Source: a virus. From it: DNA of 64,000 nt. Position numbers and translations under genes: made by a program. The stretch is taken from positions 130,658-194,657 of the IMG/VR virus record IMGVR_UViG_3300008448_000002; one strand, written 5' to 3'. Positions within the stretch are counted from its first letter, which is position 1. The number at the start of each line of letters is the position of its first letter. The notes beneath the pieces were generated by a model. That model saw only the letters and a program-made list of their open reading frames with translations. It was not told the origin of the DNA and did not search any database. This document shows, in pieces, positions 25,134 through 63,999 of the stretch.

Positions 25134-28100
25134 TTATTTTACCACACTTGCTCCATTATGACTACTATTATCTAAATATTGTATCCAATCATTCGTTCTT
25201 TGTATTAAATCTGTTTGGTTTTCAAATCCTGTTGTTTTCCACAATACTCTATTAATAGTTTGATTTACCAAAGGTAATGCTTGTTGATTAGATAAGTCAT
25301 AGACGGGGCGTTTTGTTCCTGTAGAAACATTGAATCTCACTGTCTCTACATCAGAAAGAATACTTGTATGTGTAATATCATTCGCGTCATTCCAACTATC
25401 TGCTACCACATCAACTATAATATCACCTCTTAATGAGTTTTCATCAACTGTTTGTTGTATATCTTTTTGTCCATGACTCGCGGAATTTATATATTTATGA
25501 TTTTTATTAATGGCAAGAGACAAAGGTTGAGTAGCGAATAGTTTTATAAATTTTATCTGATTATTAACTATAGTAAAATCAACGCCATATTGCTTAGAAT
25601 CATACCCATATACGGTTTCATCTTTATATTTTCTTACATATACATATAACTTAGAGAAGTCACCATTCCATGAAGTAGGAATTGAATAAGTTGATATATC
25701 TATTTCATTTGTTACTGAATTATGTATTATTCTATCTCTTTTACAAGATTTACCAGTCATTGTGCCAGCAAACCCTCGCTCTATATTCTTTAACTCGAAT
25801 GTTCCATCTTGGTTGTCAACTACCTTCCAATACAATATTTTCTCGTTAGATACATTTAATATTCCTGGAATCTTACTAATATCTAGGGTTTCTAAATAAA
25901 ACTTTTTAGTAGTGATAATAGTTCCGTTAATTGATACATCACTCAGGGTTATTGTTACATTTCCACCAGAAGGAGAGGAGATAGCAGTTATTTTTCCCCT
26001 AGCCCAAACAGAAAAATTAGTTGACTCCCTTACATAGACTATTTGATTTACATAAAGGTTTTTAGAGTTCTTTGTCGCTGTTGTTATAGAAGTAACACCA
26101 GAATTAATTGTTTTTAAAACAATAGCAAAAGATTTTCTGATTTTATTTACAAATGTTGAACTAGGATTTTCTGGATTGTGAAGAATACCATCCTCGAATA
26201 TATTAGAACTTGAGCCAGTATATTGTACGGTTATTGATGTTGAATTATTCAAAACATCATTATCCAATAATAATTCACTATCTAACTTTCTCTTGATTGA
26301 CCAATTCTCCAAAGAACTCTTGAACATTTCAAATGATAACGGTTTTGTATTGGCGTAATAGTTTACATTTGCCGTTGTTGAATCGCTATACTTCCATGAT
26401 GTTGTTCCATCAACAATAATATTATTAGTTGTGCTTTGTGGACCAGTACCAGATACATTAGATGTACCAGAAGAAACGCAAGTATATATCTTTCCGCTAT
26501 TTTTTACAATATCTCCCTTAGTATAGATAGTATTTTGTGTCCATGAGTTTAGGGCGGTAATATAATCCGCAAAATCACTGTCTGATTTTTGATAAAAGTT
26601 AAAGTTTAATACATCATTTGTTTTTGTTTTTACTAACTCTTCTGGTCTATCGGAATCCCATCTTGATTGTTGGAAAGCACCACCATTAACAAGAATATCA
26701 CTTGATGTATAAGTACTAGCATCCGTTTCTTCAAAATCTCCATTAATTTCATTTGGTTGATTTCCAATTAAATTAATATCAATATAACTAGCAACATTGA
26801 TTTTATTGGCAAATCTACAATCTCCAGAACTGTCCCAAGCAATAGTATAAAACTCTCTCCATTGATTGAGTAGTGTATCCCATATAAAGTATTGTATAGG
26901 CTCTAGTGTTACAGTAACAATAGTTCCATTAACTACCAATGAGTTTTGTGAAAGATAATTTCTTTCTTGTATGGTTGATACAACCATATCTTTATAATCT
27001 ATATCATTTTTTCTGTATGTTTTAGATAAATCCGTGTATAATTCAGCGTCATCTACAAAGGTTACTCGACTTGTATCCCAACCAAAGCCATTGTCCCAAC
27101 TGTTTAATGTATCACAATCAACCTCGTTTTTATCTAGGTCATTGCCTTTAATGGTTGTCCCTCTAAAGGCGGCACCAGAAATAAGAAGATTGGTATCCTT
27201 TCTTTGTTCGGTTAAGTCAGGTTGATAATGACTCATTATTCTATCATAAGCACCAGATTGTCTATCCCAACCAATAGCAAAAAATTCTTTCCATAATAAG
27301 TTTGTGGCATCATACATATAGTATCTGTTGTTTTCTTTAACATATACAATTGTTCCAGAAATTAAAGTTGTTGTTCCCTCTAAAGCATCCCTATCCAAAA
27401 GAGTATTTACAACTCTGTCATTGTAATTTAATGATGTGTTGGCACGATACTCTTGTTCTAGGGCAGAAAAATTATATATCATTCTATTGTTGACATACAC
27501 AACCTCAAAAGCATCCCAAGGAATTGAGTTCCATCCACTCGATGTAGTTGATGAGTTTCTATCAAAAACGATAGAAGTTTTCATTTTTCTAACAGGATTC
27601 CAGTTAATATCCCACGATTCATTGTTTGTTTTAGTATAATTACTATACCAATCATTCCAAGGAGATGTATTAAGAATCGCCACATCAGTAGAATTGTTTT
27701 CATCTAGTATTCTATATGTTAGGGTATTAGTATCAAAGTATACTGGATTATCAAAATCGGTAGATGAAACAAGTGTATTATCAATGTCGGAACTAAATGT
27801 ATCATTAAAATCTCTAACTTTTACATGATACGGTTTTACCTCATTGACAAAGCTAAGTATGTCATTGGTCTTATTTTTTGTTACAACAGGACTTTGAATG
27901 AGTTTATTTGATGTTCCTGCTATCTTCATGAAGCTCGTCTTAAATGCCCAGTCAACATTTATACCTTGACTATATGATTTTCTAATCATTGTTATAAACA
28001 AGTCATTTTTCTCAATAGATAACAACAATTTATCTTTTAAACTATCTAATATAAACTTTAACTCATAGCTACCATCTCTTCTATAAATATCTTCTATATT

Positions 28101-31100
28101 ATATCCATAGAAACCATATATTACTTTATCTGTATTATAGAATACATCTGTTAATGAAATGGTTGCTTTTTCTCTGGCAACAGTCTTCCACTGAGAGTTT
28201 TCACTTATAAACCACTCCCATCTTCCTGTACCATTATCCTTTACTTCTACAATAATATTACTTGTATCATTTAGAGTAAGGTTCAACTGTGAGAAATATA
28301 AATCTTGTAATGTATCGAAGAAATAAGAAGGAGTATCATTCTTATCAAATCCAGTAGAATACCAATCAACTCTATTCCATATATAGTTTTCTTGATTTTT
28401 GTATTTTTGGGCAGATTCCAAAATAAATCCGAAGCCATCAGAAAACGGATTTGTAGGTTGATACTTCCATAAAGTCCAAAATCCAAAATATTCACTGGTA
28501 TTTTTAATAAGAATTTTCTGTCCCGATGTCAGGAGTAAACTTGTTGATATAATATTTCTATCGGCAATAGATTCTGCCTCGAATGAATACTGTGATATAT
28601 CTGGAAGTTTATCCTCGTTGAGAAAGATACTTTCCCATTCTAATCTATCATCAATAATAGGATATTTTAAGAAAATACTATTTAGTTTCTCAACTAATGT
28701 TTTTCTGGCATCTCTACTGGCAGAATATCTACCAATTGAATTAACTTCTGGTATAAACATTGTTTGTCTTGGTCTAAAGTTTATACCATATACTTCTTTT
28801 TTTGTTAAATTAGATTGTGGGACTGTATTTTCATTATACACAGTGTTTGTCTGTATACCTATTGTTCCAATAGGTCTATATTCACTCGATACTACGCCTT
28901 GTAGTGTATTACCAAACTTTGATTTATAAGTAACAATAATGTTACCCATTGTGATTTCGCCACTATCTGCTAATTCAGATGAATCTACAACTCTTAACTC
29001 GATACTATTCGGTGTCAGAGCAGTTGTGGTTACTATTGATACTTCCTTGACAGTAACAGAATTATCCCAACCAATTAAACTATCAGTCATTTTTTTCCAA
29101 AGTAAATCTGGAACATCATTGGATTTACTTTGTTGGCTAATCAATGTATATTCTTTATGCCAACTATTCTGTATCTTAGATTCATTCCAATCTAAAGAGA
29201 ATATCGTGCTAGTATCGTTCAAGTAATTTCCAATACCGCCAATCAATAATTTATTAGTGTCAATCGCGGCAAACCAAGGAATATTACTATTGTTTGGATT
29301 ACTTATTGTATTTGCTACCTGTTGTGCCGTTAATTTTCTATTTTTAATATTAGTTTTTTGTGAGTCTTTTACCCAAAAATAATAAAAAGTTTGATTGGTC
29401 TTAGTATCGTCATTCCATTCAATGCTCGTAGCATATGATTCAATATTTTTTACTATACCTGTGTATTTTTCCGTAAGAGTATTATTTTTAGTTCTGGCAA
29501 CTAATGCCGCATATTCAGATGGCAATACAGGGCTTTTTGTCCATTCATAAATATCAATAGATGCTTTAGGTAGTAATTTACCCCAATTTCTCCACTTATA
29601 TTCATCGGTAGATGACTCATATTCATAATACTTAACAGTAGATACATCCCACCATAGTAAACCAGTTTGTTTACTATTCCAGCTTCTATTACTATCTATA
29701 GTTGTATTATCTTCCTTACTGAAATCATATATAGCAGGGTCATATTCAATTTTATAAGTAATTTCTCTGTCAATTACTCCTGGAATATATCCTTTTCTTG
29801 GGTCAAATAATTGTAGTGTTTGCTTTATAGTATTAGTTAAATTGTCGTAAATTATTGCCTTAGCAAATATAGACTGGTCATTTTTCTCTGTTTCTCTTAA
29901 TTGTTGTATCCATCCATTATTATATTGATATATTCCCCAATAATCATTGGGAGTTTGAACATTATCTACAAATGACAAATCTGTATTTCTCCATCCTCTT
30001 ATTGGCTGTCTTCCGCTCAACGACATATCGGATAAAGTAGTGAATCTTAAAGGAGATAATGAGTAAACATCACCATTTGTCGCATCGTCAGTTAAAACAA
30101 TAGGTGTATTATCATAGTTATTGAATATTTCCAATGCTTTATCAAAACTATAATCAATTGTCACATTGATTAATCCATTGTTACCATCGGCATCTAATGT
30201 TAAAATCAAATCGTCATCTATATCAATAGGAATATTATTAATAGTATATGTTAAACCACTTTTTAAATCAATATCGCCAGTTCTTAAAACTGTTACAAAA
30301 GTAGTAAATGTATCATCAAAATCTACCAATTCGTTTGTTAAGAAATCATAGGCAGATAATATCTTTACTTTGTAAACTAAATCTTCTGTTACAGATGATG
30401 GAATAGGAAGATTGAAAATCTGTCTCCAATCACCAACAGAACCATTTGGACTATTAAATTCAACACCACTTCCTGATAGAGTAGGAGATACTGGTCCACC
30501 TGTGTAACCATATACATTTACTGTATTATCGGGATTTGTGACTTCAAACATTACTCTTGTTTTATTGGCACTGTCTGTTAGATTTAATTCTGCCGTTGCT
30601 TGTGTATTTGTAAATATTGGACTTGTTGGGGCATCAATATCAACTGTAATTGGTGTACCCGTATAATTACAACTACCAATAGTATCAATAGAGATATATT
30701 CAATAGAGTAATTAAGGATGGCTTCTGCGGTTGCTCCAAACCCGCCCCCGCCACTTATGATTACTGTTGGTGGAGTCTTGTATTTAAATCCAGTACCACC
30801 AACGGGAACAAGGGTTATCTCTGTAACCTCGCCATCTACCACTGTAGCAAAAGCCTGTGCCGCCGTTCCATCACCACCAACGAAAAATACCTCTGGTGCT
30901 GTAGTATAGAAAAATCCACTATTTGTAATATTAACTCTGGCAACAAAACCAGATATGTTAGCTGTTGCCTTTACACCTTGGATACCATTAATTGTTACTT
31001 GTGGGGCAACCTCATATCCACTGCCGCCATTTAATATTTGTACATTAGATGGTATTTGATATATTCCACCCCGTCTTATCATTTCAATAGGAACAGTTGT

Positions 31101-34100
31101 CGAACCCTCAATTATTTTTACATCTGTATCGAAAAATTCAACTAAGATTGGTTGCCCAAATGAAAATACAGGCTGTGTACTATCAATTGTAACTTGACTA
31201 TTAAAAGAACTATCAACTAATCCATTTACAAATTGCGTAGGATTTGAACTTGTACCAAGGGTTATTTGTGGTTTTGTTGAATCTGATAATGGGATAACAT
31301 TACTTATTGTTATTTTATCAATTTTCATATCTGCCTGAGATACTAATTTTAATAAGTTCAATGGTTCTGTATAGGTAGAAGGTCTAACTAATACACTGAT
31401 TGAATTATTACTTTTTCCAATTACAGTATTTAATATTTCGGGATTTAAGTTATCAACACCATCCAATACTAATATATCTTTTTCTGTTATTTTTCTTGTT
31501 CCATTAACAGTGTCATTTGAAATATTAGAACTTAGTGTCTTATTCAGTAGTACTAAGCTACCACCACTAGATGAAATCGGAGGGATTATTGAATTAACAT
31601 TATAATCGGTGTCAGTTAATTGATATATGTTCCATTCTGTATTAAAATCACTATATACCCATATTCTATCATCAATTAATATACTTTTTTCTATAACATC
31701 AAATGTTAATGATATAGTCATGTTGCCAATTAATAAAGGTAATGTACCTGTTGCCCTTGTGTATTCAATGTAAATGTCACCTGTGATAAAAATATACGGA
31801 TACACGTCTACGGTATCAATAACTTGTAAATCACTGTATTGAAAGATTATTTCTCCAGATGGTGAATCTTTTCTTATTTTAATAGATGTCCCATTTAAAA
31901 ACTCTTCCTGTACCAATAAACTTATATTCTTAAGTCTATACGGTTTATTGCTAATTTTTGTTATTTTTCTGATTACACTATCGGTTGTCTTATTAAATAT
32001 TTCACTGGTAACAACGGCGGCAGATGGATTTGAAACGAGTGTATCATAGAATAACGAATTGAACTCAGTGTATGTTGTTGCTTGCCATTGAGTATCATCA
32101 ACTCTCGCATATCCCGCCGTTGGGAGAAACCCCTTTTCCTTCTGTGTGTATTTCTTTTTAGACCAATTAACATTATTCAGTGAATGTCTATAATTCCAAG
32201 ATTTATCTTTTTCTAACAATACTCCCTTATTAGAGAAGAAATCATTAATTGTTTTATAATTTTTATTATTTACACCATTTAATACATCAGAAAAGTAATC
32301 TTGTGGATATTCAATCTCTACATCAACAACAATAGAACCCACTGTCGTTAATCCATTAAAATACAGTTTTGTTTCATCTTTTACTGTTTTAAAAGGAGTA
32401 TCACTATTAAAATTAAACTTATACACATCTATTAATGATAAGTCGATAGAGGGTATTATTCTCGAATTGTTATCAATATCACCGATGGTCAAAGTTGGAG
32501 ATACACCATCAAAATACTGTTTAACCTTAACAGTGACATTCTTTATGATAACACTTTTATTAGGAAGTGTTTTAATGATTAAAACTTGTGTTTGCGGAGA
32601 TTGCGGAGTAGACTGTAAATCTAGTGAATATGAAAATGTTTTTTCAGAAACAGTGTCTCTAATATCTATCCCATAGTTATCAAATAAACTATCAAAGTTT
32701 TCAGAATTAAATTCAACTAATTGCGGGTCATTTTTATAATCCACTTGTTTTAATTGAATTTCTAATGTTGGGTTTATTTCTTCAGAACCATAAGAACCTG
32801 TTCTTACTGCCCATTCTTCTAGGAAATCAATATCAGTATTATAGCTAATAAAATCAGAACGCAAGATTCTATCTAATACGGTAGCAGTACCTTTTCTACC
32901 AATCATACCTTGATAAAACTCAAATTGATTAGTTGGGTTTACTAATAGGTTGTTTAAATATTCTCTATCTTGATAGTTGATATTATGTCTTGATAATTCC
33001 TTAATAGTTGTATTAGATGAACCTTCTATTTCAAAATAATTTCTAAAATCATTCGTTGTATTTTCAAAGTTTGGTATTATTCTACTACCTGTAACAATAT
33101 ATCCTGGAGCATCAATTCTGCCTGTCCAGTCAGTACTTCTTAAACCTTGAACTCTTAGTCGTGGTTGTCTTACACCCAGCGTTGGGTCATAGATAATATC
33201 ACCAAATACGGTTTTATTATCTAACAACAAACAATGTTCAATCTCTGTAATGAGTAATCGAGTAAAGAATATTGAATTTTCTTTAGATTGCGGAGTTATA
33301 TCAATACTTCCATCTTTTCTAGTAACAAATGTTTTATTTGCTGGAATCGGTAAACCTTTTTTATCTAAAATACCATATGTTTGTCTATGTAGAGTTTCAA
33401 CATTTTCAATGTTTCCCCTAGAAACAGTATAGGAGATTTTTTGACTGGCTGGACTCAATGCTATAATGTTACCATCGGTTAATGATAAATCACACCAATC
33501 AAGGTATTCAAGAATAGAAGTAGTCCAATCCTCAACTTTATTATTAATATTTACAAATGTAAAATTAAATCCAACACTTTCTAAGTAACGAGAATAAGAG
33601 TAAAGAAAATTCGCCACCTCCTGTTTATCTTTGAACTTTGTTCCGTAATTAATTTTAGTTACAGTATTGTTTGAGTTGGGATTGGAAAATACCGCCACTT
33701 CTCCACTGTCAATTGTAACAGTAGAAGACGTAATGCTCCAGAATGATTCCTCAAAAGAACTAGAGCTTGTATGTGTTTTCAATGCCGAATAAGTGGCATC
33801 TTTATATGAAACGGTGGTGTTAATTGAATAATATGTATTAGGTTTCCAAGACTGGATTTTTACTTTTTTATTTCTATTTGTTGTTAAAGTAAAAGATTCT
33901 CCATTTTCATCTCCCGATATAATGTTGAACCAAGGATAGAGTATGTCATACCCATAAACATAAAATCCATTGTCATTTTTCTCAACGATTACACCGCTAT
34001 AAGTATATTGTTTTTTAACAGGTGATTTATATAGAACAATGTTGGTATTTTCATTCGGTATTTTTTCCGAGTCATCACTAATTACATTAATATCAGAATC

Positions 34101-37100
34101 ATTTGTAAATCCAGCAAATCTATACACTAGCTTTACATCAAGTCCTCTAACAAAATCACCAAAGTTTGTTTTTATATCTTTATTGTTTTTTGCTAATCTA
34201 TCGCTGACCCACTGTTGTATACCATATCGTATAACAGTATTTCCGTTAGAATCTTGCTCTCCATGAACTAAAACATCATTTGTAAGTCTACTACCCGTTT
34301 TTTTATTAACAATTTGATTATTGTCCAATAAAAATATATCATCAGATTCCCAGCCATACTCTACAAAATCTGATGGTTTCATTAGGTAAGATGCCTTGGC
34401 AAAGACAAATGGATATATCGAAGAACGTCTCCACGAGGTTTCTATTGCCCCACCATCCCCAAATGCCCAATTCGCCGCCGCATCTGTCATAGTTGGTTCG
34501 TTCTTGGCGATACCAATCTCTAATGGGTTTAATAAATTACCCGACTCATCCACGGGAATTACATCAAAAATATAAGGTTTCGCATAATCTTGATTGATAC
34601 CTTGTCTTTGACCAAATCTAATATTTCCCGTTGCTATATCATTCCATAATATAAGGTTATTTTTAGTGTAGGGAGAAGTACCATAAGCGGAATCCCACCA
34701 CAACGGCTTTATTGTAAACCCTAATATTTCCCAAGGATGTGTATGAGGTCTGTCTGTATCATAAAACTGTTTATAGATTTCTCTCCAGTTTCCCGCTAAT
34801 TTCTCACCTGTAATATCATCGACTGTTGACCAATTCCAAGTAAAAGGATTTTCTGGATTAAAGGTTGTATTTTTTCTATAATTCAATCCGTTCAAAGAAC
34901 ACCATTTTTCAAAGTAAGATTTTAATATTGAATTAAATTCTTGCTTAGAATACAATCCTGTTCTATTTTTATTACCTATAATTTTTCTGACATCAAAGAA
35001 TGGCACTTCTCTTTCTTTAATAGTATTTTGTATACTTTCAATAATTTTATTTTCATATGCCAATATTACATTATCTCTATAGTCTTGATTGGCTTTAATA
35101 ACACTACCATCGTGTAATTGTATTAAATATTTTGGTTCTAGTAATGTGTCATCAAAAAGTATCATTGGTGTGTATAAGGGATACATACCTAGATAAGATG
35201 GTGTAGCTGGTGAATAGGTTGAATTATATACAGAATTACTTGTTTTGCCTATTCCAGAATTATAAAATGGAAATGATTTTGTTTTTCCGATGTTTATTTC
35301 CTGTATAACACTGTCAATCCAAACAGATGTTGGGTCAGTATCTATGAATGTTCCATCATTATAGTATTGTTGGATTTTTTGTTCAAACTTGTTTCTCCAA
35401 CGCAAATATTCAGATTCAGAATAGTCTATCGCCTCTATTAAATCTAAGTTTGTGTTTGCCATTAAAAGCATCGCCTTCAATAACGAAGATGATTGTTGTA
35501 CAATCTGTGTGCCCAATCCTTTATTTTTTGAAATATCTCGCCAGTTGTTTCTATCGTATTCACTACCTATGAATCCAATTTGTCCCTTGATGATTTCTGA
35601 GAAATGATTGTATACATCACCTTTTGATACATGTGATATAGGCTGATTTAAAGGATTTAATGATAGGTTAATAGGAATTTCATAGTATCCTTTAATGTTA
35701 GGTTCGATGGCACTTGTAAGGGTTTTTACGGTTATTACATCATTATCCTGTACATCACTCAATATTAAGTCATAATCATTGATTAGATAATCTGTGTTTA
35801 TTTCTAGTTTAATTAGATTCTTGAAGACCTCTGTTGATGTCGCTAAAGTAGAGTTTTGACTAATTTTATAGTTTTTCTTATTATTTTTAATGATAAACTC
35901 GTCTACAACCTTTTGTGATGATTTATCATCTCGTTTAAACCAATTATTGTTATATACATCCTTAAAGGTATCATGATAATAGAAATACCCAGAAAATGTC
36001 TGTAGGTTGTCATCAAAGAAATATGTATACTTTTCTGTTGTTAAATAGTTTTCAAAAACAATCTCGCCATTATTATCATATCTTAGTGTTTTATTAATCT
36101 CCGTGTCAATAGGCGATGCCGTATTAATAGCATACCCAAATACTCGTGACCCCTTAAATGATGAAGATGGGTAAATATTTGTATCATCAATTCTATTTTT
36201 CGTTGAATCGAATAAATCAAACAAAGGTTCAATATTAACATCGGTCTTTTCTTGGCATAATTTCCAGTTTAACCCCGTATAAAACACCTCTTTATTATTG
36301 TAGTAATTTCCACTTAATATTTTAGTCATTTCATAGATTACGGGGGCACCGTTAATATCTATACCATCATTCTCAACGGATATTTGTATTCTGTTATTAT
36401 TAGTACTAATAGAAAATATTTTATTATTAATCAATGGATTGGCATCATTGGTGACTAGTATTCTTACCGTTCCCCTATTGTTGATGTATGCCAAATCTAC
36501 TTCAACACCATCAATTAACCCCATTGTAGTCTTATCAATATAGGATAAAATATCTGTATTTCTATCATCAAGAAAATCAACAGAACTTCTTCTGGTTATA
36601 CCATAATTATATAATTTTAGGTTTCTATCAAATTGTAGTATTGGTCTACTTGCTTGCGCCTCTTTTAGAAATTCTTCTGTTAGCCCAGCGTCATTTAATA
36701 CATCAATGTGAAACCATCTATTAGTTACCGACCATCTTGATGTATTTGTTGAACCTCTTTGAACTGTAATATAATCTTTTTTTGAAGTGACACTTGGGTC
36801 AATAACATCATCGGGAACTAAAACAATATATTCTCCAACACCCTCAACAATAAAAATTTTATCATTATTATCTGTATTTTTATCATTAGTTATCAATATT
36901 CTTTGACCACTTGATAAGGTTGTATTGTTTAAAAATGTATGGGTTGTTTTTCCTACTATAGATTCAATATCAGAACTTCCATATACCTCTACCACTGAAT
37001 TAATAGAAGGTGCTGTTGTCAAATCAACATCTGTATCACCTGTTACATATGTAAAAGTTGCTACTTCTCCATCTACTAAAACAATAATTTCAGATAAAGG

Positions 37101-37658
37101 ATACGCAATGCTATTAGGTAAAGAAAACTTTGTTGTAATACCATCACCGACAAATTTGTTTTTATCACCAATGATGGTAATAGGGGTAAAATCAACATTT
37201 ACCCAATAATAATTTCTAAAGTTTAAAAACGAATCAATATCAATCGGAGGACACCATGAGTAATAATCAGAGGCGAATAATCTCGAATGATTATTTGTTA
37301 ATCCACCATTATCATCAATACTTTTAATAAAATCATCATAAAACAATAAGGATTGTATAGATAAATCCGCCGCCTTACTTACCATTGCTGGTTCTAATTG
37401 ATAAAATTTTCTCGAATCATCGGGTTCAACAAGATAAAAATCTTTATCTTTATCCCACCACACGGGTTTTTGCCCAATATAACCATTAATAGATTTTGCT
37501 TTTCCAGCATTAAATAAATTATCAATCGTAGACGAGAAAAACTTTTTAAGAGTATCTGTTTGATGTACTGCTGGTAAGAGGTCAATCGGACTCCTCTTTT
37601 CCGTTTTAACTCTGTCAATATATGTCGGGGTAAACTTATAATCTATTGGTTTTTTCAT
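25134..37658 (-). CDS. Giant (4174 aa) baseplate wedge / virion structural protein
   Basis: Uninterrupted 12.5-kb ORF between gp6-like and collar genes; TATAAATA at 37689-96; EVKPYHVKVR motif. Confidence 0.75.
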   Translation of the reverse strand: MKKPIDYKFTPTYIDRVKTEKRSPIDLLPAVHQTDTLKKFFSSTIDNLFNAGKAKSINGYIGQKPVWWDKDKDFYLVEPDDSRKFYQLEPAMVSKAADLSIQSLLFYDDFIKSIDDNGGLTNNHSRLFASDYYSWCPPIDIDSFLNFRNYYWVNVDFTPITIIGDKNKFVGDGITTKFSLPNSIAYPLSEIIVLVDGEVATFTYVTGDTDVDLTTAPSINSVVEVYGSSDIESIVGKTTHTFLNNTTLSSGQRILITNDKNTDNNDKIFIVEGVGEYIVLVPDDVIDPSVTSKKDYITVQRGSTNTSRWSVTNRWFHIDVLNDAGLTEEFLKEAQASRPILQFDRNLKLYNYGITRRSSVDFLDDRNTDILSYIDKTTMGLIDGVEVDLAYINNRGTVRILVTNDANPLINNKIFSISTNNNRIQISVENDGIDINGAPVIYEMTKILSGNYYNNKEVFYTGLNWKLCQEKTDVNIEPLFDLFDSTKNRIDDTNIYPSSSFKGSRVFGYAINTASPIDTEINKTLRYDNNGEIVFENYLTTEKYTYFFDDNLQTFSGYFYYHDTFKDVYNNNWFKRDDKSSQKVVDEFIIKNNKKNYKISQNSTLATSTEVFKNLIKLEINTDYLINDYDLILSDVQDNDVITVKTLTSAIEPNIKGYYEIPINLSLNPLNQPISHVSKGDVYNHFSEIIKGQIGFIGSEYDRNNWRDISKNKGLGTQIVQQSSSLLKAMLLMANTNLDLIEAIDYSESEYLRWRNKFEQKIQQYYNDGTFIDTDPTSVWIDSVIQEINIGKTKSFPFYNSGIGKTSNSVYNSTYSPATPSYLGMYPLYTPMILFDDTLLEPKYLIQLHDGSVIKANQDYRDNVILAYENKIIESIQNTIKEREVPFFDVRKIIGNKNRTGLYSKQEFNSILKSYFEKWCSLNGLNYRKNTTFNPENPFTWNWSTVDDITGEKLAGNWREIYKQFYDTDRPHTHPWEILGFTIKPLWWDSAYGTSPYTKNNLILWNDIATGNIRFGQRQGINQDYAKPYIFDVIPVDESGNLLNPLEIGIAKNEPTMTDAAANWAFGDGGAIETSWRRSSIYPFVFAKASYLMKPSDFVEYGWESDDIFLLDNNQIVNKKTGSRLTNDVLVHGEQDSNGNTVIRYGIQQWVSDRLAKNNKDIKTNFGDFVRGLDVKLVYRFAGFTNDSDINVISDDSEKIPNENTNIVLYKSPVKKQYTYSGVIVEKNDNGFYVYGYDILYPWFNIISGDENGESFTLTTNRNKKVKIQSWKPNTYYSINTTVSYKDATYSALKTHTSSSSFEESFWSITSSTVTIDSGEVAVFSNPNSNNTVTKINYGTKFKDKQEVANFLYSYSRYLESVGFNFTFVNINNKVEDWTTSILEYLDWCDLSLTDGNIIALSPASQKISYTVSRGNIENVETLHRQTYGILDKKGLPIPANKTFVTRKDGSIDITPQSKENSIFFTRLLITEIEHCLLLDNKTVFGDIIYDPTLGVRQPRLRVQGLRSTDWTGRIDAPGYIVTGSRIIPNFENTTNDFRNYFEIEGSSNTTIKELSRHNINYQDREYLNNLLVNPTNQFEFYQGMIGRKGTATVLDRILRSDFISYNTDIDFLEEWAVRTGSYGSEEINPTLEIQLKQVDYKNDPQLVEFNSENFDSLFDNYGIDIRDTVSEKTFSYSLDLQSTPQSPQTQVLIIKTLPNKSVIIKNVTVKVKQYFDGVSPTLTIGDIDNNSRIIPSIDLSLIDVYKFNFNSDTPFKTVKDETKLYFNGLTTVGSIVVDVEIEYPQDYFSDVLNGVNNKNYKTINDFFSNKGVLLEKDKSWNYRHSLNNVNWSKKKYTQKEKGFLPTAGYARVDDTQWQATTYTEFNSLFYDTLVSNPSAAVVTSEIFNKTTDSVIRKITKISNKPYRLKNISLLVQEEFLNGTSIKIRKDSPSGEIIFQYSDLQVIDTVDVYPYIFITGDIYIEYTRATGTLPLLIGNMTISLTFDVIEKSILIDDRIWVYSDFNTEWNIYQLTDTDYNVNSIIPPISSSGGSLVLLNKTLSSNISNDTVNGTRKITEKDILVLDGVDNLNPEILNTVIGKSNNSISVLVRPSTYTEPLNLLKLVSQADMKIDKITISNVIPLSDSTKPQITLGTSSNPTQFVNGLVDSSFNSQVTIDSTQPVFSFGQPILVEFFDTDVKIIEGSTTVPIEMIRRGGIYQIPSNVQILNGGSGYEVAPQVTINGIQGVKATANISGFVARVNITNSGFFYTTAPEVFFVGGDGTAAQAFATVVDGEVTEITLVPVGGTGFKYKTPPTVIISGGGGFGATAEAILNYSIEYISIDTIGSCNYTGTPITVDIDAPTSPIFTNTQATAELNLTDSANKTRVMFEVTNPDNTVNVYGYTGGPVSPTLSGSGVEFNSPNGSVGDWRQIFNLPIPSSVTEDLVYKVKILSAYDFLTNELVDFDDTFTTFVTVLRTGDIDLKSGLTYTINNIPIDIDDDLILTLDADGNNGLINVTIDYSFDKALEIFNNYDNTPIVLTDDATNGDVYSLSPLRFTTLSDMSLSGRQPIRGWRNTDLSFVDNVQTPNDYWGIYQYNNGWIQQLRETEKNDQSIFAKAIIYDNLTNTIKQTLQLFDPRKGYIPGVIDREITYKIEYDPAIYDFSKEDNTTIDSNRSWNSKQTGLLWWDVSTVKYYEYESSTDEYKWRNWGKLLPKASIDIYEWTKSPVLPSEYAALVARTKNNTLTEKYTGIVKNIESYATSIEWNDDTKTNQTFYYFWVKDSQKTNIKNRKLTAQQVANTISNPNNSNIPWFAAIDTNKLLIGGIGNYLNDTSTIFSLDWNESKIQNSWHKEYTLISQQSKSNDVPDLLWKKMTDSLIGWDNSVTVKEVSIVTTTALTPNSIELRVVDSSELADSGEITMGNIIVTYKSKFGNTLQGVVSSEYRPIGTIGIQTNTVYNENTVPQSNLTKKEVYGINFRPRQTMFIPEVNSIGRYSASRDARKTLVEKLNSIFLKYPIIDDRLEWESIFLNEDKLPDISQYSFEAESIADRNIISTSLLLTSGQKILIKNTSEYFGFWTLWKYQPTNPFSDGFGFILESAQKYKNQENYIWNRVDWYSTGFDKNDTPSYFFDTLQDLYFSQLNLTLNDTSNIIVEVKDNGTGRWEWFISENSQWKTVAREKATISLTDVFYNTDKVIYGFYGYNIEDIYRRDGSYELKFILDSLKDKLLLSIEKNDLFITMIRKSYSQGINVDWAFKTSFMKIAGTSNKLIQSPVVTKNKTNDILSFVNEVKPYHVKVRDFNDTFSSDIDNTLVSSTDFDNPVYFDTNTLTYRILDENNSTDVAILNTSPWNDWYSNYTKTNNESWDINWNPVRKMKTSIVFDRNSSTTSSGWNSIPWDAFEVVYVNNRMIYNFSALEQEYRANTSLNYNDRVVNTLLDRDALEGTTTLISGTIVYVKENNRYYMYDATNLLWKEFFAIGWDRQSGAYDRIMSHYQPDLTEQRKDTNLLISGAAFRGTTIKGNDLDKNEVDCDTLNSWDNGFGWDTSRVTFVDDAELYTDLSKTYRKNDIDYKDMVVSTIQERNYLSQNSLVVNGTIVTVTLEPIQYFIWDTLLNQWREFYTIAWDSSGDCRFANKINVASYIDINLIGNQPNEINGDFEETDASTYTSSDILVNGGAFQQSRWDSDRPEELVKTKTNDVLNFNFYQKSDSDFADYITALNSWTQNTIYTKGDIVKNSGKIYTCVSSGTSNVSGTGPQSTTNNIIVDGTTSWKYSDSTTANVNYYANTKPLSFEMFKSSLENWSIKRKLDSELLLDNDVLNNSTSITVQYTGSSSNIFEDGILHNPENPSSTFVNKIRKSFAIVLKTINSGVTSITTATKNSKNLYVNQIVYVRESTNFSVWARGKITAISSPSGGNVTITLSDVSINGTIITTKKFYLETLDISKIPGILNVSNEKILYWKVVDNQDGTFELKNIERGFAGTMTGKSCKRDRIIHNSVTNEIDISTYSIPTSWNGDFSKLYVYVRKYKDETVYGYDSKQYGVDFTIVNNQIKFIKLFATQPLSLAINKNHKYINSASHGQKDIQQTVDENSLRGDIIVDVVADSWNDANDITHTSILSDVETVRFNVSTGTKRPVYDLSNQQALPLVNQTINRVLWKTTGFENQTDLIQRTNDWIQYLDNSSHNGASVVK

Positions 37659-58002: not shown

Positions 58003-58095
58003 CTCTTGTATCCTGTTGGATTGTTTAATGATAGATACACAATATCATCAATTTATAATTTGTCAAGCAGCTTTTTTATTAGATTCTTTAATTTC
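57657..58095 (-). repeat. Repeated promoter module (57657-57714 and 58039-58095)
   Basis: Identical 24 bp GAAATTAAAGAATCTAATAAAAAA, each followed by TTGACA-16 nt-TAnnGT. Confidence 0.85.
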
Positions 58096-61071
58096 AAGAT
58101 TCATTAACTGTATAATATCAAGAATGTAATCATTCTGTTGTATAATAGGAATATTGAAACTATTTAATTTGTATTCTACTATCCACATAACAGTTTTTTC
58201 AATAAAAAATAATAATGAATCACGACATAAATCAGACAATTCATCTTTATAATCAGGGTGTAGTACATCTAGTTCATGTAATATATCTAATATTTGTGCT
58301 GGCGTTTTATTATTAAAGGTATTAAACGGTTTATATTCTTCTAATCCCGCTACATACTCAATCAGTCTCGGTATGACATCATCATATTTTAAATCTGAAT
58401 ACAAAGAATTACCAAAATTAGATAGTTTATCATCAAAGTATTCTTCAATAAACTCAAAATCCTTTAATTGTCTTTGATTAATCATAGAAGAATCAAAGTT
58501 TTTATACGTTATCTTACTATTATCTTCTAAATTATTCCTTAAACTATTGAAATAACTTGTATTTTCATTTTTCTTTTCTTTATGAAGTCGTTTTTCTTCT
58601 AATAATTGTTTCTGAAAAGCTCTCACTTCGGCTTCCCTTTCTCTTTTTTGTTTAATATCAGTAATATACACTACATTAGTTTTTTCTTTTGGTAAATCAA
58701 TAATTGATATATCCTGTAATGTATTGGCATCAAGATATTGTTTATCATTAACAATTTCCATAAAAAATGTCTCTACAATGCCAGAAACATGTCTGAATGG
58801 CATATTTTGCGACTTCTTATAATTCCAACAATCCTTATTATTAAAGCCAGAATCATAACCACTCCAAGGTTTACTTGAGTTTGGAGAGTTTTTTCTTTTT
58901 CTCATGCCAAAACTCATTTCTCTGATATATTTCTCCGCATGTAGTATCCCTTTTGTATAATCAACGGGTTGTTTAAACAGGATAATAATCTTAAACTTAT
59001 GTTTTCCCTCATTTAAACATGCCTTGGCAGATTGTCTATATCCATTACTAATGACTTTCCAATCTGTCTTATGACCAAAAGAACTATAGATAATATAGTT
59101 TGTATTAGTTTTCTTTAGATATTCTCTTGCCATATCAATAGTTAATGCTCCGCCATCAAACTCAATACAAAAACCACCTAGAGTGCCTGTATCTGCGTCA
59201 AATAATGAAAACTGACCATGACCTCCTTTTGATATTGAATGTATTGCGTCATTTTCTATATATAATCTATTATTTGATATAGATGTATTAAAACCTAAGA
59301 ATAATTCCTCTATTTCTCCATGTGTCAGATTGGTCTTCAATTTTGCGGGGGTTTTCTTACCATTAATAGGTTCAATAAATCCTATAGTACTTGGTGGATT
59401 ATCCAACCATTTATTTGGTTGATTATACCCTTGTGTATTTGTTAAAGGCATATAATTGGGATTACTTCTTAATTTGGCTAATAGCTCTTTTGCTTTTTGT
59501 TTACTAATTTCATCCCCCTTATTAATTAACTGGTCTTCACTATTATTACCAGTTTCGGTAGTTAAACAAGGATACAGGCTGCTTTCAAGACTTTTAAAGT
59601 TGCTGCGACTCTTCAAAAAAGCATCAAATAAAGATGTAATTTTAGATGCTTTTGAGGCAACATCCAGCAACTTTTTATCAAAGAAATTGCCTTCTTTATT
59701 CCATGATTCAACATCATGAGACAATTTTATTGTATTAACATTATCGTTGTTATCATTATCATAGAAGTGGGCAATTTTATTCGCCGTATCTCTATCACCT
59801 ACCAGAATCTTAACAGTACCAGACCAATCACTGTTTCTTAGCTTAATTCTATTGACCGATTGAAAAGTCATATCAAAGGATAATTCATTAAATAATACTT
59901 CCCTAGCATCATTGATTTCTAAACAATGTTCTACAAAGTCAATCATTCCTTCATCCGCATTTGTAATAGGAAGACAGGCAAAGTTATTAAAAGAATTATA
60001 TTTATTCAATCCATGTGTATGACATTTAATGCGAATACAATTCTTCAAAGGTTTTACCAACCATGAATTACTAAATCCTATCTTTTCATTATTCGCATTA
60101 AAAATAAACTCTTCACCATTGAAGAAATCATTAATGCTGTTGATGACTGATTTTCTGATAGTATAGTCTGTAATCTCACTAAACTTTTTCTTACTCAATC
60201 TGGCATGACTCAAATAGGCAATCTCAATTTTTTGGTTACTATTGACAGGTTTTGTAATCGGCAAATCATCAATATCTTGATACTCAACACAATCACTTAA
60301 TTTAATCCAGTTTACATTCCATGCTTTATAAATGAGGCGTAATTGTAGATTAGCACCCATTAATACAACATCTTTGAATCCTTCAAAAATTGTAGGTAAT
60401 AAGTATTGGTAAATTGATAACATCTTAGCTTTATTATCTTTTACATTATCAAACTGTTTACTGTTGACATATATCTCTTTATGAGAATTTTCTATAGTCT
60501 TAGATAGTTCTTTTAAAGGCAATATAAAGTCATTGTCATTCTTTGCCAGAACCTTCCTAAACGCTTTTGTATTGGGTTTTAACTGTGTATAACCACTATT
60601 ATTAATATGCTTAGAAGATGCTTTAACAGACTTTAAAAGGCTATTAAATAAGTCCATCTCAAAACCCATTCTTGATTTATTCATACCAAAGTTTAAATCA
60701 ACCTTATTAATCACATTCGGATATTCATCAACGAATAATTTATAAGAATCTTTGTTGGGAAGATTGCCACCCGATAATTCAAAGGTTTTAAATGTTGTGA
60801 TGATGATTTTCTTAACATTCATCATATTTACTTTTAAATGTTGTACTGTATTTTCTGTGGCATATAAATGTTTATTATCACTGTTGATAGTCTCAATACT
60901 ATCTAAACTAACATTCAAATTAATAAAGGATTGTGTAACCTGTTCGCATAATTCAATAGTTGGCAATACAATAAGATAATTGTGCCTTACTAGATTATTT
61001 ACAATATGATTAATTACTTGGGTGGTTTTGCCTGAACCTGGAATGCCAGAAAGATATTTAATATTTGTCAT
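58063..61071 (-). CDS. SF2-like helicase fused to a putative AEP-type primase domain
   Basis: GIPGSGKT, VLPT, FVDE and Q..NR.R in the N-terminal half; IEFDGG, IIYSSFGH and KFKIII in the C-terminal half. Confidence 0.6.
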   Translation of the reverse strand: MTNIKYLSGIPGSGKTTQVINHIVNNLVRHNYLIVLPTIELCEQVTQSFINLNVSLDSIETINSDNKHLYATENTVQHLKVNMMNVKKIIITTFKTFELSGGNLPNKDSYKLFVDEYPNVINKVDLNFGMNKSRMGFEMDLFNSLLKSVKASSKHINNSGYTQLKPNTKAFRKVLAKNDNDFILPLKELSKTIENSHKEIYVNSKQFDNVKDNKAKMLSIYQYLLPTIFEGFKDVVLMGANLQLRLIYKAWNVNWIKLSDCVEYQDIDDLPITKPVNSNQKIEIAYLSHARLSKKKFSEITDYTIRKSVINSINDFFNGEEFIFNANNEKIGFSNSWLVKPLKNCIRIKCHTHGLNKYNSFNNFACLPITNADEGMIDFVEHCLEINDAREVLFNELSFDMTFQSVNRIKLRNSDWSGTVKILVGDRDTANKIAHFYDNDNNDNVNTIKLSHDVESWNKEGNFFDKKLLDVASKASKITSLFDAFLKSRSNFKSLESSLYPCLTTETGNNSEDQLINKGDEISKQKAKELLAKLRSNPNYMPLTNTQGYNQPNKWLDNPPSTIGFIEPINGKKTPAKLKTNLTHGEIEELFLGFNTSISNNRLYIENDAIHSISKGGHGQFSLFDADTGTLGGFCIEFDGGALTIDMAREYLKKTNTNYIIYSSFGHKTDWKVISNGYRQSAKACLNEGKHKFKIIILFKQPVDYTKGILHAEKYIREMSFGMRKRKNSPNSSKPWSGYDSGFNNKDCWNYKKSQNMPFRHVSGIVETFFMEIVNDKQYLDANTLQDISIIDLPKEKTNVVYITDIKQKREREAEVRAFQKQLLEEKRLHKEKKNENTSYFNSLRNNLEDNSKITYKNFDSSMINQRQLKDFEFIEEYFDDKLSNFGNSLYSDLKYDDVIPRLIEYVAGLEEYKPFNTFNNKTPAQILDILHELDVLHPDYKDELSDLCRDSLLFFIEKTVMWIVEYKLNSFNIPIIQQNDYILDIIQLMNLEIKESNKKAA

Positions 61072-61538: not shown

Positions 61539-61760
61539 TTAAAGTGGAATATAACCCCATTTTAAATCTTGGTATGAATCTTTCTCTATTTTAATATCAT
61601 AACTATCCCAACCCGTAAATAATTTCCCCGATTCATAGTACATGATAAAGGTTTCATTAAAGTTATATGTCCCCACAATTTCAGTACCATCAGTTGGAGC
61701 ATTATCAATAGATAATTGCCAGTCAACTTTATTGGGATTAATTTTGTGTTTAGTAAGCAT
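61539..61760 (-). CDS. Small phage protein (DUF551-like W..I..AP.DGT motif)
   Basis: WQLSIDNAPTDGTEI; GGAG RBS; promoter at 61814-42. Confidence 0.6.
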   Translation of the reverse strand: MLTKHKINPNKVDWQLSIDNAPTDGTEIVGTYNFNETFIMYYESGKLFTGWDSYDIKIEKDSYQDLKWGYIPL

Positions 61761-61876
61761 AACTTTTAATTCTCCGTTTTGATATATCTGAAATCATTTT
61801 CAAATATTCTTGGTTAATACATTAATTATAAATTATTGTCAACAAGTAAATTATTACCTGTAAATAAAAAAATAAT

Positions 61877-62049
61877 TGGTGCGGTCTGGTCGCTACTCCA
61901 GATTGCTGCTTTAGGCGTGTAACAGGCACGTCATAAACGATTATTCTGTTTCTCTATGGCCACTTTAGGAGGTTCGCAACGTGTACTTCGTTCTTACCAG
62001 CCGTCAGCTATCCATTCCCTATATGTCTGCTTTCCACATTGCCGCACCA
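61877..62049 (-). ncRNA. Putative 173-nt structured RNA with tRNA-like ACCA 3' end
   Basis: Closed by TGGTGCGG/CCGCACCA; hairpin TCTGG-AGTAGCGA-CCAGA directly before CCGCACCA. Confidence 0.55.
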
Positions 62050-62142
62050 TTTGAGCATAGGCTTGCAATTTATACGCTATGGAATCAAACCATAAGAACG
62101 AGTACACTCGTTCGGCATTCAGCCCATCTACCTATGCTCAAA
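62050..62142 (-). ncRNA. Putative structured RNA / degenerate tRNA-like unit
   Basis: 12-bp terminal stem; T-arm-like TATGG-TTTGATT-CCATA and hairpin GAACGAG/CTCGTTC. Confidence 0.45.
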
Positions 62143-62183
62143 AAGAGCGGAATACAGTGCCAGTACACCACATATTAAAAAGT

Positions 62184-62270
62184 TGGTGCGGCAGAGTAGT
62201 CGTCACTACATACCGAATTGAACGGTGACAGGGCGTATACCCCCTATGACCACACAAATATACCGCACCA
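62184..62270 (-). ncRNA. Putative 87-nt structured RNA with ACCA 3' end
   Basis: Same TGGTGCGG/CCGCACCA closing stem; hairpin GTAGT-GACG-ACTAC near the 3' end. Confidence 0.5.
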
Positions 62271-62576
62271 ATTCAGTATAATACGTTCAGGATTTATTCC
62301 TACAAATTATACTGAATAAGAACGGTTGCCGATATAACGCTATCGGCGGTCGAGCCTAGACTATCCAATGTCATTTTACGGAATCGAACCGCTCCCTTGT
62401 CCTTGACCTCGGCTAACGAACAGGACTCACACCTGTCTACCTTTAAGTGTGTTACCACACCAATTTAATACTCTTGAATCATCAGCCCACTTAGATTCAA
62501 ATACCATCTTTCAGGTATACTTCGTAGGTACAGGCTTTATGTAAGTATTAAATTCGTGCGGTAATAATATTTCATG

Positions 62577-62665
62577 TTAAGCCTATCGGAAGGTTAATCC
62601 GAATCTCCATCTTTCTGTTATACAATGGCCACGAGGCGCACTACCAATTTGTGCTATAGACTTAA
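62577..62665 (-). ncRNA. Degenerate tRNA-like element (pseudo-tRNA)
   Basis: Acceptor AAGTCTA/TAGGCTT, canonical D-arm TA-GCAC-AAATTGGTA-GTGC, and a 5-bp/7-nt T-like arm; the anticodon stem does not pair and no CCA is encoded. Confidence 0.5.
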
Positions 62666-62754
62666 TAAACATACCCTACAATAATTATTTTCTCATGTCA
62701 ACATAAATATTCAAAAAATTATTATATTGAGAATATTTCATAATTATGTAATAC

Positions 62755-62762
62755 TATAAATA
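62755..62762 (+). promoter_or_regulatory. T4-late promoter TATAAATA
   Basis: Exact consensus upstream of a GAGGAG RBS and the 62784 start. Confidence 0.7.
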
Positions 62763-62783
62763 ACATAGAGGAGAAATCATCTC

Positions 62784-63197
62784 ATGAAACTAACCTTAAT
62801 ATTACTATTGATATTATTATCAAAAACAGCATATGCCGAACCAACAGTATTATCGGCAACACAATTAAGAACAATAATTGTAAATAATTCCTTAGTTTGG
62901 GATGATTCCGAAACAAATCAAAAACAATATTTTAATGATACTGCCCAAACTGTTGTAGACCATGATGGAACAGCAAAAGAAATGGGACAATGGACAGTAC
63001 CAGATGACGGTATACTGTGCTCCAAATGGGAAAGCGATGAAAGATGGAATTGTTTTGAGGTATCACAAGAATCAAATAAGATTTATTGGAAAGCTGTAAA
63101 AGATGGGACATCAAAAGGTGAAGGAGAACCAATAGTAGCTACCATGATACCAACAACACCCACCGAAACAGGAATTATTATATCGTTGGTAAAATAA
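62784..63197 (+). CDS. Exported protein with signal peptide (DUF995-like)
   Basis: MKLTLILLLILLSKTAYA-EP signal peptide; G.WTV...G.LC.KW....WNC motif. Confidence 0.7.
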   Translation: MKLTLILLLILLSKTAYAEPTVLSATQLRTIIVNNSLVWDDSETNQKQYFNDTAQTVVDHDGTAKEMGQWTVPDDGILCSKWESDERWNCFEVSQESNKIYWKAVKDGTSKGEGEPIVATMIPTTPTETGIIISLVK

Positions 63198-63273: not shown

Positions 63274-63999
63274 TTAAACTTTACTAATTAGTCTCTCATT
63301 AGAGACATATTCCTGCTTCATAGATACATATCTTGTTTCAGTATGACTACTTACTTCTCCGATATTGGTATCTCCACAGGCACACCCTGACGTTGTATCA
63401 GTGTATTGATTTCTTATATTAATTGCGGCATTTAAATCTCTATCTATTGATATTCCACATGCGGAGCAATTATATATTCTATCACTTAATTTCAAGTCTT
63501 TGTTTACCCATCCACAACAAGAGCAGGTCTTGCTAGATGGATACCATTGACTTATTTCATGAACTTTCTTTGCTTTTTCTTTGAGTTTAGTCTTTAATAA
63601 ATACCAAGGCAATTTTTGAATGGAAGGTGCTAATTTCTTATTCGCCTTCATTCCCTTAATATTCAAATTTTCTAAAACAACTACATCGTATCTCTTGGTT
63701 ATCGTAGATACAAATAGTTCTATTTCTTTTTGTTTTCTTCTCCTTATTTGTTGGTGTTTTCTGGCTAATCTTAGTCTCGCCTTGTTCTTATTTTTACTAC
63801 CTTTTTGTTTTTTGGATAGTCTTCTACTTAATATTTTAAGTTGATATTCTCTTCTTTCTTGTTTTGATAAATCAAATGTATCACCATCACTAGTTATAGC
63901 AAAAGTTTTAATACCGACATCAATACCGACTTTATTATTGTGATTTATTTCTGGTTTTTCTTTATTGGGCAATTCACACAAAATAGAGGCATACCACAT
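63274..63999 (-). mobile_element. tnpB: TnpB (IS200/IS605/IS607-family) RNA-guided nuclease, 5' end outside the window
   Basis: RuvC-I GIDVG, RuvC-II VLENL, CSCCG...CSACG zinc finger and RuvC-III DRDLNAAINI. Confidence 0.92.

Follow-up and report, generated by a model that had tools for sequence, protein, structure and literature searches.

Near the end of a 64-kb window, the final part (positions 130,658 to 194,657) of the 194,657-bp virus record IMGVR_UViG_3300008448_000002, lies, in an uncultured jumbo phage of the T4 type, an array of predicted RNA modules without a credible protein-coding gene (record positions 192534-193325; coordinates below are those of the window unless stated otherwise). 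We give an about even chance to the reading that this array is a separate minus-strand unit for stable, tRNA-derived RNAs that do not decode, probably cut from a precursor of about 0.8 kb by host enzymes of the tRNA- and rRNA-processing type, and that it is an orphan analogue of the RNAC and RNAD of phage T4. Its transcription, processing and stability, as well as any function, are what we infer from a single sequence, on which all structural claims below are based. Being an orphan represented by one sequence, the array is for now a lead and gives no evidence for a new family.

For fifty years no function has been known for RNAC and RNAD. Should operons of tRNA-shaped, non-decoding RNAs be maintained independently by T4-type phages that differ greatly from one another, this would point to a general, still unknown task; candidates are the titration of tRNA-binding enzymes, defence nucleases or toxins, and the scaffolding of RNA repair. 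The locus is also a compact, synthesisable 0.8-kb test object, with clear predictions on strand, ends and alternative folds.

A folded, non-coding island and its strand

The G+C content is 44% over 61870-62700, where the flanks have about 28%; within 61900-62500 it is 0.44-0.455, against 0.21-0.31 on either side. The longest open reading frames (ORFs) in 61860-62700 encode 65 aa (GTG start, plus strand) and 52 aa (GTG start, minus strand). An earlier sequence-only reading had described about 800 bp that are GC-richer than the flanks and lack a credible coding sequence, and these figures, with no ORF above 65 codons, bear it out. Folded as minus-strand RNA, the whole region reaches -272.8 kcal/mol (z -6.6), and none of 20 dinucleotide shuffles was equally stable. 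Seven modules, U1 to U7, are listed here from 5′ to 3′ on the minus strand; z is the comparison with shuffles and p comes from the equilibrium ensemble of the full transcript.

62575..62668 (-): U1, closing stem of 9-10 bp (62577 with 62665, one G-U); -23.1 kcal/mol, z -1.8
62452..62564 (-): U2, irregular hairpin of 21 bp (21 nt, 90% complementary); z -5.5
62327..62451 (-): U3, ambiguous, no convincing overall fold; alone z -0.8
62262..62326 (-): U4, 21-bp hairpin with G-U pairs and U-U mismatches; inner stem p 0.96
62183..62273 (-): U5, closing stem of 9-11 bp, UUGGUGCGG(UA)/(UG)CCGCACCAA; z -3.6 (folded as 62184-62271)
62042..62150 (-), core 62050-62142: U6, 13-bp closing stem (12 bp plus one G-U); z -5.0 (folded as 62050-62183)
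61874..62051 (-), closed at 61877-62049: U7, 8-bp closing stem UGGUGCGG/CCGCACCA; alone z +0.5

All six terminal stems of the earlier reading are present in the sequence, namely 61877-84/62042-49 (8 bp), 62050-61/62131-42 (12 bp), 62184-91/62263-70 (8 bp), 62271-82/62306-17 (12 bp), 62462-72/62544-54 (11 bp) and 62577/62665 (about 10 bp, one G-U), as are its T-arm-like pieces at 62378-92 and 62420-36 and its TTGACA at 62701-62696.

U1 is the most tRNA-shaped module. It contains a D-arm-like hairpin with GG in its loop (GCAC-AAAUUGGUA-GUGC), two small hairpins in the place of the anticodon arm, and, in the T position, a hairpin UCGGA-UUAACCU-UCCGA that adjoins the 3′ closing strand; its closing stem has p 0.89 in the full-length ensemble, and neither ARAGORN, RF00005 nor Rfam as a whole gave a tRNA match for it. 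U6 is the best-defined module, with p 0.97 for its closing stem and 0.98 for its T-hairpin. Its four hairpins are GGC-UGAAU-GCC, GAACGAG-UGUA-CUCGUUC, the T-arm-like UAUGG-UUUGAUU-CCAUA and GCG-UAUAAAU-UGC, and a CCGC/GCGG extension of the stem is possible. U2 rests on a CCGCAC/GUGUGG motif pair, its inner stem has p 1.00, and its branched apex carries two hairpins.

The remaining modules are built from similar parts. U3 contains the hairpins ACAGG-UGUGAGU-CCUGU (62436-62420) and CCGAUAG-CGUUAU-AUCGG together with the T-arm-like GCGG-UUCGAUU-CCGU (62392-62378). The 3′ arm of U4 terminates in the motif AAUUGGUGCGGU, for which complement copies downstream are alternative partners. Inside U5 are an AGGG-GGUAUACG-CCCU hairpin, the canonical T-arm-like ACCG-UUCAAUU-CGGU and an extra hairpin GUAGU-GACG-ACUAC, and its 3′ end is GCACCA followed by AACUUUUU. 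U7 ends in ACCGCACCA, a GCACCA end like that of U5, then AUUAUUUUUUUAUUU. Local alignments stand above shuffles (z 2.5-3.7) for U1 with U2, which have a 30-nt similar segment in common, for the 3′ halves of U3 and U6, and for the 5′ halves of U7 and U6, where one hairpin has changed in a compensatory way (GGC/GCC to AGC/GCU). These alignments make the array look like a set of diverged paralogous modules and not like tandem repeats, for which Tandem Repeats Finder returned no rows.

The evidence favours the minus strand as the RNA strand, on the grounds of fold stability, G-U pairs, T-loop hairpins and a promoter-like site. Over the whole region the minus-strand fold is 41 kcal/mol more stable than the plus-strand fold (-231.2 kcal/mol), and the same strand is preferred by six of the seven units (U4, for example, folds to -26.5 kcal/mol on the minus strand and to -20.1 on the plus strand). 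The predicted helices hold 21 G-U pairs on the minus strand versus 12 on the plus strand, and the mismatches in the long hairpins are U-U or G-G, never of the A-C type that would be G-U on the opposite strand. All three G-C-closed T-arm hairpins of the array lie on the minus strand. Two promoter-like sites read in the same direction:

62673..62703 (-): TGTTGACA-N17-TAGGGT, with the -35 box TTGACA at 62701-62696 and the -10 box at 62678-62673, as read from the sequence
61816..61846 (-): second TGTTGACA site, a direct repeat of 27 nt with 74% identity to the upstream promoter region

The start predicted for the first site, near 62666, falls within 1-2 bases of the first base of the U1 closing stem. 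Two further TGTTGACA sites with a similar layout occur in the genome. The site at 61816..61846 stands directly after the array, ahead of a 73-codon ORF and a helicase gene, and the array therefore looks like a separate transcription unit. Directly past the last helix comes AAUUAUUUUUUUAUUU, which is U-rich and terminator-like. Both promoter-like sites and the terminator-like end are putative, being consensus readings.

In the mechanism that we propose, a sigma-70-type promoter at 62703-62673 would start transcription of 61874-62668 right at the first closing stem, and the resulting RNA, some 800 nt long, would end in a run of U past the last CCGCACCA helix. It would consist of compact folded modules in a row, derived in part from tRNA genes through duplication and divergence. 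Lacking both an anticodon arm and a complete cloverleaf, none of the modules could decode. Host RNA-processing enzymes would then cut the precursor into several stable small RNAs, presumably RNase P with 3′ trimming at the helix-plus-ACCA ends and RNase III or RNase E at the three irregular hairpins of about 21 bp; the scheme is modelled on the way in which T4 makes RNAC and RNAD from its tRNA operon. Among possible functions, the likeliest is that of a stable RNA tying up proteins that recognise the acceptor/T-arm shape of tRNA.

tRNA-like parts and the comparison with known RNAs

Three minus-strand hairpins have TTYRAWY loops closed by a G-C pair (TTCGATT, TTCAATT and TTTGATT, with loop starts at 62388, 62222 and 62089), and each of them shows the T-arm combination of a TTCRANY-type loop with a G53-C61 closure. 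Elsewhere in the 194.7-kb record, hairpins of this type belong to true tRNAs only. The phage's own tRNAs mostly end in GCACCA followed by TT, so the two GCACCA ends in the array, CCGCACCAAUU and CCGCACCAACUU, look like borrowed tRNA 3′ ends.

No complete tRNA accompanies these parts, as the earlier reading had also held. ARAGORN found no tRNA in the window, and the array stayed empty when introns were permitted and under the program's standard relaxed setting; RF00005 gave no match in the array even at E ≤ 10, while it scores the eight real tRNAs of the phage at 42-68 bits. An anticodon arm is absent: the 7-nt loops are UGUGAGU, UUAACCU, UAUAAAU and the three T-loops, and the combination of U33 with a purine at 37 occurs in none. 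A T-arm on a 7-bp acceptor with a free NCCA is found in no module, and the only hairpin adjoining the 3′ strand, that of U1, has a loop other than a T-loop. Hidden tRNAs with unconventional introns were sought by deleting each hairpin whose stem had 5 bp or more (88,469 constructs). We rejected them, as ARAGORN returned only three implausible matches, every one dependent on a deletion of about 257 nt. More relaxed ARAGORN runs (ps80 with introns; mitochondrial mode) produced hundreds of noise calls genome-wide and were not used.

Two tRNA-like sequences outside the window are also of note. One, a tRNA-Tyr(GUA)-like gene at record positions 108444-108530, the end of the phage tRNA cluster, combines an acceptor stem of 7 bp and the anticodon loop CUGUAAA with a long variable arm and an encoded CCA; there is no GG in its D-loop, its T-loop is CGCAACU, and it was missed by standard ARAGORN and the Rfam tRNA model and partly listed by the mitochondrial mode of ARAGORN only. 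Judging from this non-canonical gene, the phage seems to tolerate non-canonical tRNA elbows. The other lies in a related jumbo phage of 543 kb (158250-158550, minus strand), with the acceptor GCGGUCG/CGACCGC-A-CCA and the anticodon loop CUCAGAC; it is apparently without a normal T-arm and was not called by ARAGORN.

The closest known counterparts are T4 rnaC and rnaD, which encode the small stable RNAs called species 1 and 2 at the end of the T4 tRNA operon (AF158101, 70908-71171). Their roles are unknown (PMC3014915); both RNAs have been detected in infected cells, with Northern-blot confirmation by the RNAC probe (PMC9697503). Like them, the array is phage-encoded and non-coding, is without a known function, and is predicted to give compact folds closed by pairing of the 5′ and 3′ ends, as stable RNAs from a multi-RNA transcript in a T4-type phage. 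In our rnaC alignment the closing stem is followed by two hairpins and a canonical T-arm that adjoins the 3′ strand, and the rnaD end GGCGCACCA is close to the CCGCACCA ends of the array. The differences are that the array has no sequence or profile homology to the T4 RNAs, has seven modules instead of two, has three modules in which the T-arm does not abut the 3′ closing strand, and carries a self-complementary 8-12-mer with alternative folds that T4 lacks.

A covariance model of rnaC, built from seven diverse sequences of seven phage genera (47 pairs, 19 of them covarying), reached 9.8 and 9.5 bits on the minus strand of the array in a run over 1.5 kb with filters off, and gave no match at E ≤ 10 in the whole record. 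On these low scores we regard the array as an analogue of T4 rnaC and not as a family member. Homologues of rnaC/rnaD themselves were seen in 793 phage records, where the region is mostly labelled 'hypothetical protein' or 'tRNA-OTHER', and rnaC without rnaD reaches Kagamiyamavirus, Karamvirus, Tegunavirus and Kanagawavirus.

With canonical tRNA genes and phage tRNA arrays the array shares TTCGATT/TTCAATT T-arms, one D-arm-like GG hairpin, terminal helices of 7-8 bp, GCACCA ends, A/U-rich spacers and the character of a G+C-rich island in an A+T-rich genome; unlike canonical tRNA genes, it has units of 65-175 nt, no cloverleaf or anticodon arm, and no ARAGORN or Infernal match. YrlA-type Y RNAs (RF02553), which go with Ro60/Rsr, resemble it in their long terminal stem, tRNA-like T-arm module and RNA-repair setting, and some jumbo phages have a TROVE protein with a tRNA-like partner RNA (PMC7824862). 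As far as the 194.7-kb record allows, which is about 51% complete, we rejected this candidate, there being no Rfam match to it and no TROVE (PF05731; controls positive) or RtcB gene in the record. For ToxI and pseudo-ToxI (RF02519), the ToxI consensus has a 5′ end similar to the repeated array motif AAAUUGGUGUGG, and RNA mimicry would be the same kind of strategy; this too was rejected, at a chance-level 14.9 bits (E 4.2) against a gathering score of 50, with no tandem repeats of 34-36 nt and no ToxN-like gene seen near the array.

Searches for relatives of the array itself were negative in the phage database, in 21 related phage records and in metagenome scans. Against all 4227 Rfam families, cmscan gave nothing at the gathering thresholds and only chance-level matches at E ≤ 10. 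No blastn match was obtained in 50,697 phage records. The same held for ten records of related phages identified through the major capsid protein (66-76% identity), of which three are complete genomes, and a covariance model of U6, run on 17 phage records (16 of them related), recovered nothing but U6. The helicase gene next to the array, used as a synteny anchor, could not be found in five related phage records, in IMG/VR, among metagenome contigs or in a protein word index; beside a helicase homologue in Atu_ph07, an apparent 1-kb gap turned out to hold unannotated ORFs and no RNA array.

Motif matches in related phages were scattered singletons in coding DNA, and motif-pair pattern scans of IMG/VR and metagenome contigs returned chance matches in G+C-rich DNA, satellite-like 40-nt repeats and an unrelated 192-nt hairpin repeat. 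The last of these, on metagenome contig Ga0163155_10001229 (3700-4400), has units of about 192 nt in at least three repeats, each a long hairpin with the foot GGTGGTGCGGTG / CACCGCACCACC, and is unrelated to the array except for the common 8-mer.

Antisense action was also considered. There is no significant complementarity between the array and the remaining phage genome, and the best complement to a phage tRNA, 11 nt in the variable arm of a tRNA-Leu, is at about chance level. A TnpB guide RNA was likewise discarded, since the nearby TnpB gene ends at 63274, a gene on the opposite strand (62784-63197) lies between, and the array has a promoter-like site of its own.

Competing folds and other explanations

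Several findings weigh against a unit for tRNA-derived RNAs. The nearest tRNA gene is 76 kb away from the array, whereas rnaC and rnaD stand at the end of their tRNA operon. The T-arm is separated from the 3′ closing strand by an extra hairpin in U5 and U6, and in U3 it is followed by about 35 nt without a well-defined structure, so that the acceptor/T-arm stack recognised by RNase P and the CCA enzyme is not formed; moreover, the 3′ ACCA is paired with a 5′ UGGU, whereas tRNAs leave ACCA free. Folded alone, U7 (as 61878-62049), U3 and U1 are no better than shuffles. With no homologue found, the array offers no covariation and no evidence of selection past single-sequence folding. The -10 box TAGGGT is weak, with three of six consensus matches, which is why a consensus promoter scan missed the site at 62673..62703. 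A further difficulty comes from a repeated 8-mer, TGGTGCGG/CCGCACCA, of which a pattern search of the 64-kb window found four exact copies, all in the array:

61877-84 (+): exact copy
62042-49 (-): exact copy
62184-91 (+): exact copy
62263-70 (-): exact copy
62455-62 (-): copy with one mismatch
62554-61 (+): copy with one mismatch

On the RNA strand this amounts to AAWUGGUGYGG three times and its complement three times, to which the 5′ feet of U4 and U6 add two degenerate complements. Any 'G' copy has possible partners both upstream and downstream, which makes several mutually exclusive folds available. The pairings between adjacent copies close U5 with 9 bp plus two more pairs (one G-U) and U7 with 8 bp. 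The nested pairings form perfect helices of 12 bp (62273-62262 with 61885-61874) and 10 bp (62193-62184 with 62049-62040). As modelled, these pairings allow the 3′ half two mutually exclusive folds, either three separate units (U5, U6 and U7) or a nested domain some 400 nt in length.

In the full-transcript ensemble the nested helices have p 0.96-0.98 (c2:g3 0.98, g2:c3 about 0.96), U7 has U5 as its partner in both the minimum-free-energy (MFE) fold and the ensemble, and the closing stems of U5 and U7 are displaced (p 0.00). The T-arms of U3 and U5 also fall to p 0.00, so that two of the three T-arm hairpins are dissolved, while U1, U2, U4 and U6 retain p 0.89-1.00. The earlier picture of six independent, back-to-back closed units is thus too simple: the repeated motif of 8-12 nt gives exclusive pairings, three units have no exceptional fold alone, and nested pairings are predicted to take the place of both 8-bp closing stems. 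What stands of the polycistronic, tRNA-derived precursor then proposed is a non-coding, structured, minus-strand and probably polycistronic RNA with tRNA ancestry or mimicry.

These folds lead to the alternative that survives best, although we still consider it unlikely: a single ornate, multi-domain RNA may be formed by the 3′ half (about 400 nt, 62273-61874) or by all 0.8 kb, with the 12-bp helix outside, the 10-bp helix inside and U6 at its apex. Besides the MFE and ensemble preference for the longer, perfect nested helices, the 411-nt segment folds with z -5.65, U7 alone is not above shuffles, and the size (0.4-0.8 kb), many hairpins, phage setting and lack of a known function recall ROOL and GOLLD, whose size resembles that of the array. 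However, outside the motif the interiors of U5 and U7 are only marginally complementary (z -2.1, equalled by 7 of 200 shuffles), MFE predictions are not reliable over long range, and during transcription the local hairpins form first. Known ornate RNAs such as ROOL and GOLLD are, in addition, widespread and widely conserved families, whereas the array is an orphan with no detectable relative and no Rfam match to these or any other large RNA even at E ≤ 10.

A further possibility, which we hold to be rather improbable, concerns the 8-12-mer itself. It could be a designed switch or assembly handle of one ornate RNA of 0.4-0.8 kb, which would alternate between the modular and the nested fold or, like ROOL and GOLLD, multimerise by pairing from molecule to molecule; or else the blunt GGUGCGG/CCGCACC-A(CCA) helices could be acceptor-end mimics that soak up host toxins by which tRNA 3′ ends are modified or cut. 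If either were true, the array would represent a new phage RNA class without a catalogued relative.

At a slightly lower level we place the view that the array is a functionless, decaying cluster of tRNA genes or of other acquired structured-RNA genes, with the T-arm and CCA pieces as fossils. The tRNA fragments without complete cloverleaves, the unexceptional folds of U3 and U7, the lack of homologues anywhere and the ORFan-rich accessory surroundings beside a TnpB transposase gene would all fit. Neutral decay in a 32% G+C genome should, however, have wiped out a 44% G+C island and its perfect stems of 12-13 bp; U2, U5 and U6 keep z values of -3.6 to -5.5, G-U pairs are tolerated in stems only in the minus-strand sense, four copies of the 8-mer are exact, and promoter-like and U-rich signals bracket the island.

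Phage RNA mimics of host RNAs, such as pseudo-ToxI, are an established means of counter-defence, and the earlier reading suggested that the processed RNAs are decoys for anticodon nucleases or uncharged-tRNA sensors. This would be a sub-case of the reading as a unit for tRNA-derived RNAs, and the phage does carry tRNA-repair genes (RlaP, an Rnl1-type ligase and a kinase-phosphatase) and its own tRNAs. We nevertheless think it very unlikely, for an anticodon stem-loop similar to a known nuclease target is missing from every unit, the loops of 7 nt are either T-loops or lack the U33/purine-37 pattern, and the repair genes are 45-58 kb distant.

Least probable of all is a DNA-level element in which the six TGGTGCGG copies are iterons or recombination sites, for example of an origin served by the 1002-aa helicase, and the hairpins are cruciforms or single-strand initiation signals: the copies do lie within 700 bp and nowhere else in the window, the adjacent gene encodes an SF2-type helicase, and neither array nor helicase occurs in the five related records in which the helicase was sought, but the copies are 80-190 bp apart where known origins have tight iteron spacing, the island is G+C-rich and not of the easily melted A+T-rich kind, iterons would not need the long, mutually different stems beside each motif, T-loop hairpins would have no role, and the strand asymmetry of stability and G-U pairs indicates RNA.

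Genomic setting

The record is estimated to be 51% complete. It has a T4-type Gp23 capsid gene, its nearest IMG/VR relatives are jumbo phages of 300-600 kb with a capsid identity of 66-76%, and its G+C content is 32%. Ordinary tRNA genes number eight in the record by ARAGORN and RF00005, none of them inside the window; they are found at record positions 62994, 104601-104764, 108041-108435 and 116346. The array is flanked by ORFans, the helicase, a secreted DUF995-like protein and a TnpB gene, and thus sits in an accessory corner of the genome that is rich in mobile elements and ORFans:

58063-61071: helicase gene, 1002 aa, SF2-type; phrog_2467, weak DEAD/ResIII matches
61539-61760: 73-codon ORF, downstream of the second promoter-like site
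62784-63197, opposite strand to the array: 137-aa signal-peptide protein, Pfam DUF995 score just above the cut-off
63274-63999 (-): TnpB / Cas12f-like (OrfB_IS605) gene, cut by the contig end

The C-terminal half of the helicase gave a weak PriCT_1 lead, and a primase role is possible. A T4-type late promoter motif, TATAAATA, followed by GAGGAG and ATG, precedes the signal-peptide gene (62753-62786, plus strand). The mobile element at the contig break may account for the assembly stopping there.

RNA repair, which the earlier reading had noticed, is encoded by an RlaP nucleotidyltransferase (3051-4001), an Rnl1-type RNA ligase (13810-15027) and a kinase-metallophosphatase with an AAA_33 kinase fusion (16635-17903). 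An ART-PolyVal ADP-ribosyltransferase domain is encoded at 2-1756, and together with RlaP, the Rnl1-type ligase and the kinase-phosphatase it makes up a complete toolkit for tRNA repair and conflict.

Outside the window there is another island without ORFs, about 1.4 kb long (record positions 77149-78550, in particular 77800-78480); tRNA-like motifs and 8-mer copies were not seen in it. Several of its 120-nt windows have z values of -4 to -7, and it contains perfect hairpins of 14-17 bp. Within the window, a single ORF of 4174 codons occupies 25134-37658 on the minus strand.

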